NCBI GenBank assembly: GCA_039804105.1
Contig: JBDRZU010000001.1
Location: forward strand, 992,001 to 1,056,000
Source of the DNA: a candidate division WOR-3 bacterium
Lineage (GTDB): Bacteria; Hydrothermota; 32-111
Length of the DNA stretch: 64,000 bases
Direction of reading: 5' to 3'
Shown: piece by piece, positions 36,001 through 42,000 of the stretch
Layout: the number at the start of each line of letters is the position of its first letter
Position numbering within the stretch: position 1 is the stretch's first letter
Program-made: the position numbers

Positions 36001-39000
36001 ATCTCTTCAAGAAAAATTTCTCCAAAACCTCTATTTCTTTTAAGTCCCATAGATCTTGTAATTTTTAATAAATCATTTATAAAACTTTTATATTTCTCAT
36101 CAAAATCAATTTTAAAAACAAATTCTAAATTTTTCTTCAAAACTCTTGATGTTCTCAAAGAATTTTTTAAAGCTACTCCATTTTCATCTATTGAAGTTTG
36201 ATTTCTTAAATAAGTATAGTAAGAGATTATTCTTTCTTTATTAAAAAGAGTTTTATCTTTTTGACTTTTTATATTGTTTTTAATATTTTCATAGTTATTT
36301 ATATAAGCGTTTGATATTCTTAGATTACCAAAAACCTTATCACCACTTTTGCCAAACAAATAATCTATATCTTTTTTTTCAATTTTATAACCATTATCCA
36401 AAAGTTCCATAGCATTTTCTTTTAATAAACCTTTTATTCTCTTCGCTGGGATATAAGGAATTCCAAATTCATCATAAAAAACATCTGTATCTATTATTCC
36501 TGAAAGTCCTTGACCTGAATAAGGTATCGTATCTGATAATAATTTAATTTTTATAAACATAATTTATCTCCTTATTTAAATATTTTCCAAAAATTCCATA
36601 ATTTCGATTGCATCATAGTATGGCGTTATTTTTTCTTCAGTAAAAATTTTATTTGAATTATCATAAGTTGGTAAACAAAAATTTCTACTATTTAAAAAGT
36701 TTATGTAAAATTCAACATCTTCTTTTGATTTTATAAGATAGGAACGCAACTTTTTTATTTTATTTTTTGGTTTATTATTAAAATCGTTAACTAATTTTTT
36801 TAAATTATTAAAATTAAATTTTTCCAATATTTTTTCACCACCTATATAATATGGCCTCCAAAGCAAATTATACGAATCATAGCCTTCTTTAGGTTCTGGT
36901 TTTTGCATATTTGGAACAGAATAAATTTTATTTCTTAATGTTTTAAGATCCGTTGTTATTCCTGAAAAAACAATATGAAAATCTATCCAACTACCTATAT
37001 AATTTAATTTATAATAACTTGAAATTCTTTTTCCTTTTTCCTTTGCACTTTTACATAATTCTTCTGCCAATTCATATCCTCTATAAAATGGAAAATGGGC
37101 TTTTACCAAAGCAACACCAGCAGATGCGGTTAAAGTTAATTCTTTACCATCAATTTTTATCCTTTCTTGTTCAATATTTTTAAGAATATCTTCCGCAATA
37201 CTTAAGCCATATTTACCTTCACAAATTAGGGTAATATCATCCCCTCCAAAAATTATAGGTCTAATTTTTATTTTATTATTGGCTATAAAATGCTTTTTAT
37301 TTTTCATTTTTTTTAAAGTTTCTGAAAACGCTTTTTCATAAATTTTATTTATATCAAATGATATTTTTTTAATTAATCGAATAGAATCTTTAAAATCTTT
37401 TGAATTTTGTAATATTCCTTTAATAAAATTACCCATACTATTTCCATCAATATGAATATAGGCAAGGTGTCCATCTTCTTTACCTCTGAATTTTTCTATA
37501 TTTTTTTCAAAAGTCAAACCATCAAGAACTTCTTTAAATTTTTCTTCAAAAATATTAATTTCTTCTTCTCTCCTCATTAAATATGCTGGTTTTGAAATAT
37601 AACCATCTTCATCTTTATAATAAGCGGGTAGATTATCCAAAAAACTTTCTCTCGTTATTGATATTCCAAGAAGTGATGTCTTTTTAGGTAACTTATTTTT
37701 TCTTATATTCGCTTGTTTTATTAACTCATCAAAATCTTTTTGATAATCCTGTAAATTAGTTTCTTTATATGAAACTGCGAAAGAAACAAGACCATAAGTA
37801 TAATCATAAAAATTTTTAGACAGTTTTTTAGTAAAATTTATTGCGCTTTCCTTATCATTGAACATTAAAAGTAAATTTCCTCCTCCAGAAAATATTATTT
37901 TGCCTTCTTTTGAATCTGATTCAAATCCTTTGTCAAGATCAATTTCTGTCACCCCCAGACTTTTTAAATTTTCATTAGAAAATAATTTTGAAACGATGGA
38001 AGATGCTCCAATATTTTCACGCATTTTTTTTGAAAGAAAAATAAAATTCTGAATCCCTGTCATATCATAATAGGCCAATGTCTTCATCTCTCCTCCTTAT
38101 TCATAAATCTTTTTTCCAATCAATTCTATTAACAGATCATTCATTCCTGTTTTAGTATATATATTCAATCTCTGTTTACCACTTTTGGTGACTATCCAGT
38201 AAGAAACACCCTTTTCACCTATCATCTTTTCAAATTCAAGATGGTTTTCATCAACTTTACATTTTCTCATCTCATCGAGGATAAATTCCGTAATCAGGTT
38301 TCTTCCAATTCTGTATATTCTTTTAATAATTTCTCTGATATCTTTATCTGTTATATCATTGATTCCACTGAAACCATCGCCCCATAAAGTTGAATGGCTT
38401 TTTTTCTCTCCAATTCTTATCGGAACTTCTTCCTGATCAATTATATAACTCTTATAATAATCAAAAATCATCTTACCAACAGGAGAATCTGTAAAACTTT
38501 TTATGTTTTTATCGTTGTTAAGTAATATTCTAAAATTTTGTGGCAAATTATTTTTAAATAAATTTTTTGCTCTTTCATAGTCAGTTTCATTTTTTATTTC
38601 CTGTATCAATTCATAATACTTCTCATAAAGTTTGAAATCAAACTCAATTGGAATTTCGGGAAGTTTTACAATAGAATTAAAATCCTCAAAAACATAGTAA
38701 ACTGGAACCTTGTATAGTACTGCAAGTATTGTTGCATAAGCGATCTCTGCTTTGAATCCACCGGTTGCAAGTATTTCAATGTTTCTTCCAGTATTATCGA
38801 TTATGTTCGTAACTTTTTTGATAAAATTTATCAGCCCTCTTGTTTCAAATTCATTTGCATCATATTTTAATCCCTCAATTTTTACCCTTTCAACATTTGC
38901 TTTATATTTTTCAAGAATATACTTTTCAAGTAATTTACACGACTTCTCTCCCTCTTCAGTATCACTTTCTATTAAGTAAAACCAGGAGTTTTTATTTACT

Positions 39001-42000
39001 TCTTTTTTTAACTTATGGATTGTATTTGTTTCTGCTGAGACCTTTTCTGGAGGATTTGAAAGCATAAAATCCAAAATATGTTCGAAAGTTTCCTCTTTAC
39101 CAGGACACATCTTTCTAAAATTTCCAAACACCGCAGTTCCAACTGTTACAATATAACTTTTCATATCTTTTCTCCTTAAAAGTTTTCCTTTTTTAAAAAT
39201 CAGTTCTTTCCCATTCTCCCCAATTATCGTTCTAACTTCCTTTTTCAATTTTTGTTTCACATTTTTAATCGCATCCAAATCTCCATGAACAAGCAAAACA
39301 TTTTTCGGAGTAGTTCTGTTGACATAAGATATTATACCTTTCAAACTTGAATGGAGTGACAAAGGAAAGTGTTCAACATTGACTTTTTTCACATACTCCT
39401 TCTCATCTATATATATAACTCCATTTTTTTCAGTTTTTAAAAGTTCATATCCTAAAGTTCCTTTTGCAAGATAACCTGTGAAAAGAACAGAGGATGTCTC
39501 ATCCTCAATAAGATGTTTTAAAATTTGATATGAAGGAGTATGAGGATTCAGCATTCCACTTGAAGCAATTATTATCGATTTTCGAGGTATAGAATCAATT
39601 TTTTCAATATATTTAGATTTTAACGATTTAGAATGACATTCTCTATAAATCGGGGTTATTTTATTTGCCATTCCAACCGTATATATCTTTTTAGTTAACA
39701 ATTCTTTACTTCTTCTTTCAAAAAGAAATAGTATTTCCTGTGTTTTTCCAAGTGCAAAAGCAGGTATCAAAACAATTCCGTTTTTTTCTAATGTTTTATT
39801 TATCGATTCTATAAATCTACTTTCATATTTTTCTCTCATCTTTTCTTCATATTCTGAGTTTCCATTTGTTGTTTCTGTTATCATAATATCAACATTTTTT
39901 TTATAATAGTTTAATTTTCCTGTCATAATATTGTTCGAAACAGAAAAATCACCTGTATAAATCAAAGAGTTCCCTTTGTTATCAAAAATATGTATTCCAC
40001 AACTCCCAATAACATGTCCTGATTTAAAAAGTTTAAAATTTATATTAGAATTCAATTGATTAACCTTGTTCAGTTCAATACATTCTATCTTTCTGTCAAG
40101 TTCAAAAAGATTTAATTTATTAAAATAAATTTCATAGAACCTTTTATTATAGTCATTCATCATTAAAACCTTTGCACTATCAAGAAGCATGATTTTATAG
40201 ATTTCTTTCGAATTCTGACTCATCACAATTCTTTTCACATCAAAAATTTTTTCTATAACAGGCAATGAACCAAGATGATCAAGATGGGGATGAGATACAA
40301 ATAAGAGATCAATTTTTTCATCTTCAATTTTATGAAGTAAAGGTAATTTGTTATATCCAGATTTATTTGGATCCATACCACAATCAAGCATAATTTTTAT
40401 TCCTTCCCAATCAACATAATAAGAGTTTGCCCCAATCTCCTGTGCCCCGCCAAGCGGCATAATTTTTATCAACGTAACCCCTCTATTGTTATTTTTAATA
40501 ATTCAAAAGATTTTTCTAATTCTTCAAAAGACATGTTTAGGTTATATTTTTTTAAGTAATTGAGTATCAAAAATTTTGCTAATTTTTTTATATCTTCTTG
40601 CTCTTCTTTATTAATAATTTTATCTCCATGAGCCATATTTGAACAGTTTCGTATCTTTGAACAATTAAAAATCCATTTAACATCTATATTTCTTTCTTTA
40701 CTCAAAATATCGTTATTCAAAAGTTTTAATATAAAAACATCATCCATTAGTGCTGTTTTAGGTGGTAAACCAGTTCCTTTATATTCTTCACCAAAAACTT
40801 TTCCAGCAATTTCTTTAAACTTTCCAAAATCTATTTTTATCTTTGAATAATCAGGCTTAGAAGTATCAAATTCATAATCTTTTTTTAAAACTGATTGAAA
40901 AATCATTTCTACTGTTCGATATAACAAAAATGATGAAATTTCATACCGTTCTTTTTTTTCATAAAAAATTCCTAAAAAATAATGATTGAAAATTTTATAT
41001 TCCTCAGTTTCTTTAATGTTTTCCAGTAAATTTACATTAATTTCTAATTTACTTCTTAGATTATTATCTAATTCTTGAAATTTGTTTAATATTTGTTCAT
41101 ATAATTTTTTTGATTCTTCAAAATTAAAATCAATCCAGTTTTTTTGTGCTTGAGATAATAATTTTATTAATTCAATATTATATTGTTTTCTAAAAGTAGT
41201 CTTTTCTTCATATTCTTTTATCAATTTACATGCTTCATTGTAATTGCCTGAATTAAAATAATTTAAAACATCCAACAAAACCTTATCCCCTGAGAGATAA
41301 AAAGGATTATAAATAATTTTTAAAAATTCTGAAGAAAAAAAAGGTTTATTACTTTCTCTTACATATCTTCTATAATCTATATAACATGCGTCTATATTAA
41401 AAATAGCACTGATCATTCCAGATATAGCGCTCATTGTTTTTTTCCCACCTGTTAAATCAATTAAAATTATTTTTTCTTTATTTGAAAGGTATATGTCTAC
41501 AATTTTGTTATAAAAATTAGTTATATCTCTTTCATCTACTTCATGAAATGATATTTTTTCCTTTTCATATTCAATTTTTTCAAGAATAATATCTCTATAT
41601 TTTGAACTTTCCTTAGTAACAATTAAATAAATTGCTTCCTTCGGTTTTACTAATGAACCAGAAAGAATTGAAGTTGCAGGAGAAAGTCCAACTAAAGAAA
41701 TCAAAATATCATATTCTTTTTTTACCTCTTTTTTATTTTCGTCAATAAATTTTTTTAGATATAAAGGTAAAAACTCATTAAAATAAAATCTATCTTTTTC
41801 TTTAAAATCTTTTATTTCATTATATTTTTTGTTCATTTCGTCCATTAATTTTTCAAAATTTTTATCCACCTTCACTCCTTTTTTTCTATCATACCAAAAC
41901 GTAAGCAAGCGCGTAATAAGCGATTTCCCAATCAACACCTTCACTCCTTTTTTTCTATCATACCAAAACCCATTGAATTTTTTTCTCCTAAACCAGAATC

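Follow-up and report, generated by a model that had tools for sequence, protein, structure and literature searches.

A beta-CASP nuclease joined to a CARF7 sensor in a type III-D CRISPR locus of a WOR-3 bacterium: a candidate cyclic-oligoadenylate-gated RNase

Introduction

Many type III CRISPR loci encode several effectors with one common activator (PMC11229360). Among the sensors involved, Crf7 (CARF7) proteins are classed as sensor, effector or ring nuclease for cA4 (Supplementary Table 2, PMC12669027), and the same source describes members with effector domains fused C-terminally. Beta-CASP nucleases, including Cas14, RNase J and CPSF73, are reported to be activated via a closed-to-open transition (PMC13069675).

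Here, we describe a gene, g00935, that joins both kinds of module. It lies in a window of 64,000 nucleotides (positions 992,001 to 1,056,000 of contig JBDRZU010000001.1). In agreement with an earlier note on this DNA, no account of a beta-CASP-CARF7 architecture was found in the literature searched, to which the 2020 CARF census did not belong. A 2023 supplement includes an unlabelled entry, "(betalactamase)", which is a caveat to the novelty of the fusion.

Results

Gene model and genomic context

The type III-D locus around g00935 is complete (Table 1). The gene order proposed before (Cas6, Csx1, g00935, Cas10d, Cas5/7, Cas7, Csx19, Cas7, Cas4, Cas1, Cas2) was confirmed, as was the position of the fusion gene between csx1 and cas10d. 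Its strand had to be corrected to minus, where the reading frame is free of interruptions; the plus strand across the same stretch is rich in stops. While the frame of the 787-aa version put forward earlier is indeed open, the 791-aa form is the more likely one, because a GAGGGG ribosome-binding site (40483-40478) lies 5 nt ahead of TTG 40472. This start overlaps the csx1 stop as TTGA, an overlap of 4 nt.

Cas10d is predicted to be cyclase-competent and HD-less: its GGDD motif was recovered, and there is no HD dipeptide within the first 120 aa. The three arrays of one repeat were likewise retrieved, with 39 and 8 copies in the window (0 expected, 100 shuffles) and 26 more approximately 36 kb past its end.

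Table 1. Coordinates of the fusion gene, its modules and the surrounding CRISPR locus (window positions).
Feature	Position	Strand	Details
Beta-CASP-CARF7 fusion gene (g00935)	38097..40472, stop codon included	minus	791 aa from TTG 40472, or 787 aa from ATG 40460
MBL/beta-CASP/RMMBL nuclease module, aa 1-410	39231..40460	minus	D26, H57xH59xD61H62, H149, D171, E196, H370, H392
CARF7 (Cas_APE2256 / Crf7) sensor, aa 433-640	38541..39164	minus	motifs TVGTA(443), SAE477, GGFK570
Short post-CARF region, aa 641-669	38454..38540	minus	alignable to Cami1-type proteins and g00924 until ~aa 665
C-terminal tail domain, 118 aa (aa 670-787), no family assigned	38100..38453	minus	conserved residues and ending G-x-K-I-Y-x
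Stand-alone CARF7 protein g00924, 389 aa	24921..26090	minus	PADLOC CARF7--CARF_DUF2103, full length, 1.7e-102
cas6	41941..42681	minus	
csx1 (CARF1-HEPN, R-x6-H at 432)	40469..41944	minus	
cas10d, 503 aa, GGDD at 281, no HD domain	36576..38087	minus	start 9 nt past g00935 stop
cas7-cas5 fusion, subtype III-D	34461..36560	minus	
cas7 (III-D)	33156..34451	minus	
csx19	32709..33143	minus	
cas7 (III-D, large)	30934..32700	minus	
Adaptation module cas4-cas1-cas2	29159..30915	minus	
CRISPR array 1	26223..29006	.	39 identical 31-nt repeats
CRISPR array 2	46315..46843	.	8 repeats; sigma-70-like promoter (12/12) at 46941-46914, minus strand

The nuclease half

The Pfam ranges noted before were reproduced (Lactamase_B 10-81, Lactamase_B_6 17-176, Beta-Casp 240-340 with 1.4e-16, RMMBL 360-408), and the HPHLDH motif was found at residues 57-62. 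Among the best sequence matches are TIGR03675 (1.3e-62) and human CPSF73 (2i7t, E 3.3e-47), in whose alignment every motif is paired. All nuclease residues listed in Table 1, from D26 to H392, are invariant in 30/30 fusion representatives. Judged by these residues, the module holds an intact, RNA-type beta-CASP catalytic set.

Some beta-CASP enzymes, those of the Artemis/SNM1 class, are DNA cutters. A cOA-gated DNase could therefore be considered instead of an RNase, the fold including DNA nucleases (PMC10910872), the Cas10d of this locus being without an HD DNase, and two relatives showing weak DRMBL matches (P0028, 9.8e-4; P0040, 1.7e-4). However, RMMBL, the RNA-specificity domain, is present in g00935 and in 27/29 fusion relatives, and the closest solved structures are all RNA enzymes (CPSF73, INTS11, aCPSF1/FttA, Cas14, TTHA0252). 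Motif C, in which His is the mark of the RNA type, is His in 30/30 fusion representatives, and we regard DNase activity as most unlikely.

The CARF7 sensor

The C-terminal half contains Cas_APE2256 at residues 473-602 (1.5e-29), and the matches to the PADLOC models CARF7--CARF_RelE (2.3e-50, residues 434-686) and CARF7--CARF_DUF2103 (1.3e-45, residues 435-762) were obtained again. PF09651 (103 bits, cut-off 24.8) and TIGR02619 both exceed their cut-offs. The profile of this half matches the solved chain 8phb (8.7e-26, columns 39-234), which is labelled "APE2256 family" and which, together with 8phj, we take to be Cami1. Across the fusion representatives, G441, E477, G567, G568 and K570 are invariant. 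K570 is the equivalent of K169 of Sis0811, the key residue for ligand and catalysis (PMC9638899). The sensor is thus predicted to be intact, with its ligand-pocket lysine kept; its pocket appears atypical, because the GTS serine, kept in 28/30 family members, is replaced by Ala443 (Ala also in the closest relative).

Since the Crn1 ring nucleases belong to CARF7 (PMC12409355; Table S2, PMC12669027), g00935 might be a signal-turnover enzyme, in which CARF7 captures cA4 or linear products and the tethered MBL/beta-CASP module degrades them as an off-switch for Csx1. In ORFs of at least 80 aa within 24.9-46.3 kb, no other known ring nuclease family was matched; with Csx1, the locus already has an effector, and a second RNase is therefore not required. 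MBL-fold enzymes are also able to destroy cyclic nucleotides, precomputed Pfam lists give PF23023 (Anti-Pycsar Apyc1) for fusions, and there is a faint NCBIfam cyclic-nucleotide phosphodiesterase match (0.0088). We nevertheless consider this role unlikely: in our own scan, PF23023 reached just 20.9 bits (cut-off 50) in 1/36 proteins, and, unlike a small Apyc1-like MBL, the N-terminal half has the complete beta-CASP and RMMBL make-up of CPSF73/aCPSF enzymes. Known ring nucleases, moreover, are small (survey limit of 250 aa, PMC12409355) and cut within the CARF pocket, where g00935 is without the serine.

The C-terminal tail and the stand-alone CARF7 protein

Conserved positions of the tail are W693, G694, R709, R714, Y754, G761, Q763 and G782, followed by the terminal G-x-K-I-Y-x. 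The earlier note had described it as a DUF2103-like tail also seen in g00924, which did not hold: BLASTP aligns the two proteins over residues 422-625 only, the hhalign alignment between g00924 and the profile of the C-half ends at column 236 of 352, and neither protein has a Pfam match to DUF2103. The RelE tails of CARF7-RelE proteins showed no relation to it either (hhalign probability 0.8%). An assignment of the tail to RelE or DUF2103 was unsupported by every test run.

The whole C-half (433-786) is an independent protein family as well, with at least 7 stand-alone representatives (phmmer, ~350 aa), and would therefore be able to work without the nuclease. The 118-aa tail could then be the real cOA output, with the beta-CASP module as a constitutive or substrate-gated add-on that trims, for example, RNA fragments left by Csx1 or the Cas7 subunits. 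Consistent with this, the tail was found solely behind CARF7 (6/6 matches, 4/6 of them stand-alone CARF7-tail proteins) with conserved Arg, Tyr and Gln positions, and C-terminal effector fusions are the arrangement described for Crf7 (PMC12669027). What makes this improbable is that nuclease and CARF7 are constant and the nuclease residues invariant, whereas the tail is kept in only 12/29 fusion representatives, being absent in three (682-694 aa) and replaced by other C-termini in the rest. In addition, no enzyme family is detectable in the tail.

As the stand-alone protein g00924 keeps the GxS serine and the GGxK lysine, it is a candidate for either a ring nuclease or a second effector with CARF7.

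Distribution and phylogeny

The eight fusion clusters counted previously were reproduced by a word-indexed search (8/120 listed). This number is too low: among the best 150 matches of an exhaustive phmmer search over 1.84 billion representatives, at least 29 further clusters (50% identity) are fusions. With at least 30 such clusters, the description of the fusion as very rare was overstated. In the beta-CASP tree, a single branch (SH-aLRT 81.6) separates the 30 fusions from the rest. The fused CARF domains group together as well, with three non-fused rows inside, one of which is a fragment of a fusion. Identities of the beta-CASP and CARF halves are correlated (r 0.54; 0/2000 permutations as high). 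The fusion is a coherent lineage whose two halves are co-inherited.

A 56%-identical metagenome locus (L091) has the same gene order as here, and its Cas10d matches at 2.6e-184. Elsewhere, the fusion is adjoined by two CARF7-RelE (Cami1-like) genes (L095) or by a CARF4-PD-DExK (Can2-like) gene (L171). By comparison with the 14 locus proteins of the window, 80 loci around stand-alone beta-CASP genes gave 0 matches. Another beta-CASP gene of the host genome (457 aa) has just 25% identity to g00935, so that the fusion is an extra, locus-bound copy. The host-type copy was also found in the same-genus genomes G002-G004, all without the fusion; for G001, no ~460-aa copy is listed.

Not every fusion is in a type III locus, which speaks against the effector reading. 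No defence genes flank the copy in G049 within 15 kb, type III modules being located on other contigs of that genome, and neither a RAMP protein nor Cas10d was found in G021 (98% complete).

The phylogeny also bears on whether g00935 may dock, like Cas14, on the HD-less III-D complex and cut target RNA or crRNA precursors, CARF7 being a ring nuclease or adaptor only. The gene is directly upstream of the HD-less cas10d, type VII descends from III-D (PMC10910872), and the Cas14 model NF045584 matches at 6.8e-57. This match, however, amounts to 193 bits, with the cut-off at 800, and is exceeded by the generic aCPSF1 model, as in 40/41 other beta-CASP proteins tested (the exception being the Cas14-like P0119). 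Cas14-like rows form a separate clade (support 99) without any fusion, some fusion genes are located away from effector-complex genes, and behind the nuclease of g00935 lie CARF7 and the 118-aa tail, no Cas10-like C-terminal domain being detected. A complex-associated role thus seems very improbable.

Discussion

We propose that g00935 is probably a cA4-gated RNase that serves the type III-D system as ancillary effector. Most likely, it is a previously undescribed kind of RNase switched by the CRISPR alarm nucleotide. The earlier reading as a cOA-gated beta-CASP RNase fits all testable points (catalytic set, CARF7 pocket, operon position, recurrence); its activation by cOA is what we infer. 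Target RNA would be met by the III-D complex, and the HD-less, GGDD-bearing Cas10d would produce a cyclic oligoadenylate, most likely cA4, since this is the named ligand of Crf7 (Crn1, Cami1) and Crf2/Csx1 proteins. Binding by a CARF7 dimer of g00935 would cause a movement transmitted to the MBL/beta-CASP pair, opening a normally closed catalytic cleft. The enzyme would then cut RNA as an endonuclease and/or 5'-3' exonuclease, in parallel with Csx1, the operon's HEPN RNase, and together they may stop growth or virus expression. The signal would be removed by CARF7 ring-nuclease activity, which is probably weakened in g00935 because the GTS serine is Ala443, and which may come from the neighbouring g00924.

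Of the described systems, Cami1 (CARF7-RelE, a cA4-activated ribosome-dependent RNase) shares with g00935 the CARF7/Crf7 sensor and the stretch right behind it, and both are type III ancillary genes combining sensor and RNase logic. The nuclease of Cami1 is a C-terminal RelE, whereas that of g00935 is an N-terminal, 410-aa, Zn-dependent beta-CASP module, and the tail of g00935 shows no relation to RelE tails. The Crn1 ring nucleases (Sso1393/Sis0811 type) have the CARF7 fold family and the pocket lysine in common with g00935, but are stand-alone proteins of less than 250-300 aa without a large nuclease, and their pocket serine, kept in most of the fusion family, is lost here.

In general design, g00935 resembles Csx1/Csm6 and Can1/Can2/Card1, where a fused nuclease is switched by a CARF dimer (presumed in g00935) on sensing cOA. 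Type III loci encode these effectors, and a single locus often has several. Their sensors are CARF1/4 instead of CARF7, and the domain order is reversed. The nuclease also differs in fold and chemistry from the metal-independent HEPN of Csx1/Csm6, being a two-metal MBL enzyme; such beta-CASP enzymes leave 5'-P/3'-OH ends.

All catalytic motifs of the N-half are common to CPSF73, aCPSF1 and the bacterial ~460-aa stand-alone beta-CASP RNases. Compared with CPSF73/aCPSF1, g00935 is without KH or CPSF C-terminal domains and scores under the family cut-offs, and housekeeping copies, including the host's own, fall outside the fusion clade. Cas14 (type VII) is, like g00935, a beta-CASP RNase with the same motif set recruited by a type III-related CRISPR system. 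Because of its CARF sensor in place of the Cas10-like domain, its low NF045584 score and its clade apart from Cas14, g00935 appears to have been recruited independently; presumably, it works in trans in response to a signal and does not dock on the complex.

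Gene model and organisation of the type III-D locus

The gene g00935, which fuses an MBL/beta-CASP/RMMBL nuclease to a CARF7 sensor, occupies one long minus-strand open frame that runs from a TTG at 40472 to 38097, and the plus strand is shut by many stop codons. The earlier note had read a 787-aa protein from the ATG at 40460. This reading is contained in the open frame, but the 791-aa form from the TTG is the likely product, because a GAGGGG motif ends 5 nt upstream of the TTG and the four additional N-terminal residues are also present in the closest homologue. The TTG overlaps the csx1 stop codon as TTGA, and cas10d starts 9 nt after the stop of the fusion gene. 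Residue numbers follow the 787-aa form.

All genes of the locus lie on the minus strand. PADLOC recognised Cas10d (7.6e-114), Cas5_IIId (4.8e-157), Cas7_IIId (8.7e-155 and 2.5e-114) and Csx19 (5e-11). Cas10d carries the cyclase motif GGDD at residues 281-284 together with a Pfam palm2 match (3.9e-18), and no HD dipeptide was found in its first 120 residues. With its adaptation module and three CARF proteins, the locus makes up a complete type III-D system, in which the fusion gene is encoded alongside a cyclase-competent (GGDD) Cas10. Spacers of array 1 gave no match to phage records, and a composition check gave no GC island signal.

Features of the type III-D locus and its surroundings, with window coordinates unless stated otherwise
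Feature	Position	Strand	Remarks
387-aa ORF	50006-51169	minus	PADLOC DndA/SspA match
TTGACA-16-TATAAT	46914-46941	minus	perfect promoter-like site directly upstream of array 2
Array 2	46315-46843		8 repeats; perfect sigma-70-like promoter upstream
Second promoter-like site	46254-46282		11/12 positions; at start of orf322
Three unassigned ORFs	42693-46282	minus	between array 2 and cas6
cas6, csx1 (CARF1-HEPN, R-x6-H), fusion gene, cas10d		minus	successive
Ala443 codon of fusion gene	39132-39134	minus	pocket serine position
cas7-cas5 fusion, cas7, csx19, large cas7		minus	after cas10d
cas4, cas1, cas2		minus	after large cas7
Array 1	26223-29006		39 repeats; after cas2
Stand-alone CARF7 gene (g00924)	24921-26090	minus	after array 1
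Third array	1091683-1093525 of G000 contig 1		26 copies of the same repeat; ~36 kb past the window end

The three unassigned ORFs upstream of cas6 have counterparts in identical order in L091, a syntenic locus (9.5e-155, 3.9e-49 and 7.4e-15). One of them, orf580, shows a weak Lon-protease-like domain (Pfam ChlI 5e-4; PDB 1xhk 0.0079) with TPR repeats, orf280 had no match, and orf322 has a weak GerE/HTH C-terminus. The trio recalls that of Calp (protease, anti-sigma, sigma), although it lacks a SAVED or CARF domain, and may be a further accessory module of the III-D locus. The 387-aa ORF, which matched the DndA/SspA model of PADLOC (2.4e-150), most likely encodes a common cysteine desulfurase of the IscS/NifS type; the ORFs scanned included no further Dnd/Ssp genes.

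An intact RNA-type beta-CASP nuclease

Beta-CASP enzymes are defined by MBL motifs 1-4 (D; HxHxDH; H; D) and motifs A (D/E), B (H) and C (H or V), the RNA-specific type being marked by His rather than Val as motif C. The Pfam ranges given in the earlier note were reproduced (Lactamase_B 10-81, Beta-Casp 240-340, RMMBL 360-408, Cas_APE2256 473-602), with Beta-Casp scoring 61.5 bits against a cut-off of 27.7. RMMBL reached 31.7 bits (cut-off 21.6) and motif C is H392, as in the RNA-specific type. In the printed alignment D26, H57-x-H59-x-D61-H62, H149, D171, E196, H370 and H392 each pair with a catalytic motif residue of CPSF73, and all ten are invariant in 30/30 aligned fusion proteins. The motifs show the nuclease half to be an intact RNA-type beta-CASP enzyme, which is predicted to be active. 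An action as a DNase instead of an RNase is an unlikely alternative; H392 and the RMMBL match point to RNA.

Among solved structures, human CPSF73 was the best match to this half (3.3e-47), ahead of INTS11, archaeal aCPSF1/FttA, Cas14 (3e-30) and TTHA0252, with RNase J as a marginal match. The NCBIfam matches to aCPSF1 (TIGR03675, 1.3e-62) and Cas14 (6.8e-57) both lay far under their cut-offs. Residues 1-432 were touched by no PADLOC model, and the CARF model set does not cover the nuclease half.

The CARF7 sensor and its ligand pocket

The C-terminal half matched PF09651 with 103 bits (cut-off 24.8) and the NCBIfam CARF model TIGR02619 with 68.4 bits (cut-off 37.45), as well as 13 CARF7-- models of PADLOC (best 2.3e-50). 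The two PADLOC matches previously noted were recovered, CARF7--CARF_RelE (2.3e-50) over residues 434-686 and CARF7--CARF_DUF2103 (1.3e-45) over 435-762. G441, E477, G567, G568, K570 and Y589 are invariant among the 30 aligned fusions, so that the family retains the G-G-x-K pocket motif as GGFK570. The pocket serine of the G-T-S motif is kept in 28/30 fusions and is replaced by Ala443 in the window's protein and its closest relative, P0003.

For CARF7-type ring nucleases, PMC9638899 names two key residues, a serine that follows strand 1 (S12 of Sis0811) and the lysine K169; the lysine stabilises the transition state and is required for binding, and the serine is described as important in large CARF7 enzymes. 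We infer that the fusion family would bind cA4. Many fusion members may also degrade cA4 slowly and thereby be self-limiting. The window's copy, with Ala443, would then more likely be a pure sensor. That the protein is a signal-degrading enzyme instead of an effector is a less likely alternative. The product of the neighbouring stand-alone CARF7 gene, which retains both pocket Ser and Lys in the alignments, could serve as an off-switch.

A C-terminal tail specific to CARF7 proteins

Homology of the C-terminal half to Cami1-type (CARF7-RelE) proteins and to g00924 ends at about residue 665, and the final 118 residues form a separate conserved module with the motifs K-x-H-S-T-L-W-G, D-I-P-D-x-x-R-x-I-L-x-R-I, L-E-F and Y-x-I-x-T-x-x-G-x-Q and the ending L-G-x-K-I-Y-P. 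This tail is common to 12/29 fusion representatives (from the best 150 of 7153 matches) and to stand-alone proteins of ~350 aa. A search aimed at longer proteins placed it behind CARF7 in 6/6 matches, with no other setting among them.

The tail had been described as DUF2103-like and shared with g00924, neither of which we could uphold: Pfam found no DUF2103 at E <= 1 or at E <= 10, and the hhalign alignment with g00924, the window's member of PADLOC model PDLC01930, ends ahead of the tail. The sole pointer to DUF2103 is PDLC01930 itself, which reaches position 337/353. RelE was also rejected as its identity: when 23 tails were aligned by hhalign with 53 tails of RelE type, the probability was 0.8%, RelE was not found in the tail by Pfam or PDB profile searches, and the PADLOC CARF_RelE model PDLC01937 aligns with the fusion just to position 249/344. 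Across eight members, no shared Pfam family appeared at E <= 10; PDB profiles returned nothing meaningful and the ESM Atlas no usable match.

Less probably, the protein acts as an effector through its tail and the nuclease is auxiliary, a reading favoured by the occurrence of the tail on CARF7 proteins that have no nuclease domain; it is weakened by the presence of the tail in 12/29 representatives and of the nuclease in all of them. Beside the stand-alone CARF7-tail genes of L092-L094, L097 and L133 (short contigs), no adjacent beta-CASP gene was seen.

Family size, lineage and distribution

When 1.84 billion cluster representatives were searched exhaustively with phmmer, 7153 matched at E <= 1e-3, of which the best 150 were examined. 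Among these were at least 29 other fusions (682-868 aa, 29-56% identical, aligned over both halves), all 29 carrying MBL/beta-CASP families and PF09651. Seven further proteins of ~350 aa matched within residues 433-786 and carried PF09651 alone; the remainder were beta-CASP proteins that stood alone or had other extensions. In the 5.8-billion set, word-indexed searching gave four fusion clusters with the C-terminal half as query and eight among 120 listed with a profile query. The eight clusters of the earlier note were thus obtained again, but this figure reflects the limit of the method and not the size of the family, since the exhaustive search recovers more. One cluster member, from a candidate-division WOR-3 MAG, is named "putative CRISPR-associated protein".

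In an IQ-TREE phylogeny (LG+C20) of 63 beta-CASP domains, the 30 fusions form one side of a branch with moderate support (SH-aLRT 81.6), neighboured by bacterial stand-alone enzymes of ~460 aa, and a FastTree of 143 rows did not contradict a single fusion clade. In the CARF-domain tree, the CARFs of the fusions group together and away from the CARF7-RelE clade. Also placed in this group are three rows that are not fused, of which one is a piece of a fusion protein. Between the nuclease and CARF halves, pairwise identities correlated (r 0.54; 0/2000 permutations as high), which, as related sequences inflate such a test, we read only as no sign of domain swapping.

The distribution of the fusion is patchy. 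Searched against 60 genomes of the phylum to which the window belongs, the full-length query recovered it from the window's own genome (G000), from G021 (40% identity) and from G049 (32%). Three of four same-genus genomes (G002-G004) gave a ~460-aa beta-CASP match alone, and the fourth (G001) matched the CARF part alone. A search of 271 genomes of the phylum with the C-terminal half, a query that would miss divergent CARFs like that of G049, added no further fusion, and the Cas10d of the window's locus was found in 0/59 relatives. The host's separate 457-aa beta-CASP gene is 25% identical to the fusion. Coverage of the query reached 80% or more in none of 245 plasmid records and none of 7 phage records. 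Sequencing runs containing most of this stretch carry the label hot-spring metagenome, and no RNA data set was listed for it.

Several other architectures were encountered. The 722-aa CARF7 protein of G208 was ruled out as a beta-CASP fusion. NB-ARC/TPR (STAND-like) proteins of ~1060 aa (P0006, P0008) carry CARF7 at the C-terminus, another unusual CARF7 architecture. A separate bacterial beta-CASP family of ~820-870 aa (P0064, P0070, P0091, P0095, P0101-P0104; loci L023-L047; several in Clostridia) has ~390 C-terminal residues without a Pfam family that are not CARF, and cas genes are not adjacent.

Gene neighbourhoods of the fusions

The 56%-identical protein of L091 lies in a locus that reproduces the window's entire locus gene by gene, the three unassigned ORFs upstream of cas6 among them. 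In L095, two CARF7-RelE genes lie within 8 kb of the fusion, and no Cas10 was seen in this 11-kb piece; its first part (L095:1-8331) holds the tandem Cami1-like genes together with a BnzA-like and a LeoBC/dynamin-like ORF. A CARF4-PD-DExK (Can2-like) gene adjoins the fusion in L171 of G021, a 98% complete genome in which no RAMP or Cas10d was found with the queries used. The fusion in L172 of G049 has no recognised defence gene within 15 kb, and Cas10 and RAMP genes are present on other contigs of this genome. L096, L098 and L099 are too short for a neighbourhood judgement. Unlike its unfused relatives, the fusion is accompanied by cOA-signalling genes in 4/5 informative places: among 80 loci of stand-alone or otherwise extended beta-CASP genes, taken from a full-alignment contig scan that settled on a beta-CASP motif, none matched the window's 14 locus proteins or CARF7.

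Proposed mechanism and significance

In type III CRISPR systems, defence is handed to enzymes switched by cyclic oligoadenylates (cOA). New effector classes, among them HEPN, PD-DExK, RelE, Lon, TIR, deaminase and membrane proteins, have each meant a new way to stop the cell or the virus, and several have been turned into diagnostic tools.

An RNA-type beta-CASP enzyme is here joined permanently to an intact cA4-type sensor and encoded within a III-D operon with a cyclase-motif Cas10. We consider the fusion to be probably a cOA-gated RNase. Supplementary Table 2 of PMC12669027 lists cA4 as sensed by both Crf7 proteins and Csx1, and several effectors sharing one activator are frequent in type III loci according to PMC11229360. 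PMC13069675 describes Cas14, RNase J and CPSF73 as held closed and active once the MBL/beta-CASP cleft opens; in the fusion, a CARF dimer moved by its ligand would open this cleft.

A bolder reading, at present rather doubtful, is that the protein is the founding member of an undescribed type III effector class, a cA4-switched CPSF73-like endo/5'-3' exoribonuclease with a new tail module, and that beta-CASP nucleases were recruited twice independently. If so, one recruitment would have led to Cas14 of type VII, which is complex-bound, and the other to a free enzyme under signal control, and beta-CASP nucleases would have entered CRISPR immunity more than once. On this view the CARF7-specific 118-aa tail would serve as a new module for output or targeting, such as one that docks the RNase on a cellular RNA machine, as with Cami1 and the ribosome. 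If switched by a ligand, the beta-CASP enzyme would bring in a metal-dependent RNase of different chemistry, possibly with processive 5'-3' decay, and offer a simple bacterial model for the allosteric drive of CPSF73/RNase J-type closed-to-open gating. The family, though small, is diverse, with at least 30 clusters at 50% identity, and thus offers many orthologues to test.

Comparison with known systems

No description of a CARF-beta-CASP fusion was found in the literature searched, outside which lies the 2020 CARF census (NAR 48:8828); this covers the parts consulted of PMC12669027 with its Supplementary Table 2, PMC10910872, PMC11229360 with its supplement, PMC12409355, PMC4012209, PMC11090510, PMC12799240 and the Domainator preprint. 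The 2025 classification (PMC12669027) gives RelE and DUF2103 as Crf7 fusion partners; the effector families it names are HEPN, PIN, RelE, PD-DExK, HD, caspase and Lon. A caveat on novelty comes from Table S3 of a 2023 terascale-clustering paper, with an undescribed CRISPR-linked cluster labelled "(betalactamase)" (gene ~682 codons) that stands outside that paper's CARF-labelled entries.

A complex-bound, Cas14-like nuclease is a further, unlikely alternative, suggested by the Cas14 matches of the nuclease half. Cas14, however, has a Cas10-like C-terminal domain where the fusion has CARF7, and its operon holds cas7 and cas5 alone, whereas the fusion stands in a full III-D locus with cas10d. The fusion reaches 193 bits with the Cas14 model NF045584 (cut-off 800; best stretch 3-286), and Cas14-like rows and fusions form separate clades. 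An origin of Cas14 by a deletion joining the fusion gene to the adjacent cas10 was rejected: the Cas14-like P0119 (600 bits with NF045584) and P0110 fall in a fusion-free clade (support 99) seen in both FastTree and IQ-TREE, and the worse match of solved Cas14 than of human CPSF73 to the nuclease half also counts against it.

Cami1 has a C-terminal RelE-family RNase domain, which was not detected in the fusion, nor was the C-terminal DUF2103 of CARF7-DUF2103 proteins. Crn1 ring nucleases are small stand-alone CARF proteins with catalytic Ser and Lys, whereas the 787-aa fusion keeps the Lys and lacks the Ser. With the aCPSF1 model (TIGR03675, cut-off 580 bits) it scores 211.9 bits, the profile match starting at position 180, and it begins with the MBL domain, unlike aCPSF1 with its N-terminal KH domains. 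As each fails a defining feature tested, the fusion is not Cami1, Crn1, Cas14 or aCPSF1. Judged by its profile matches, its sensor is a member of CARF7/Crf7, and in its working the fusion would resemble the known CARF-nuclease effectors.
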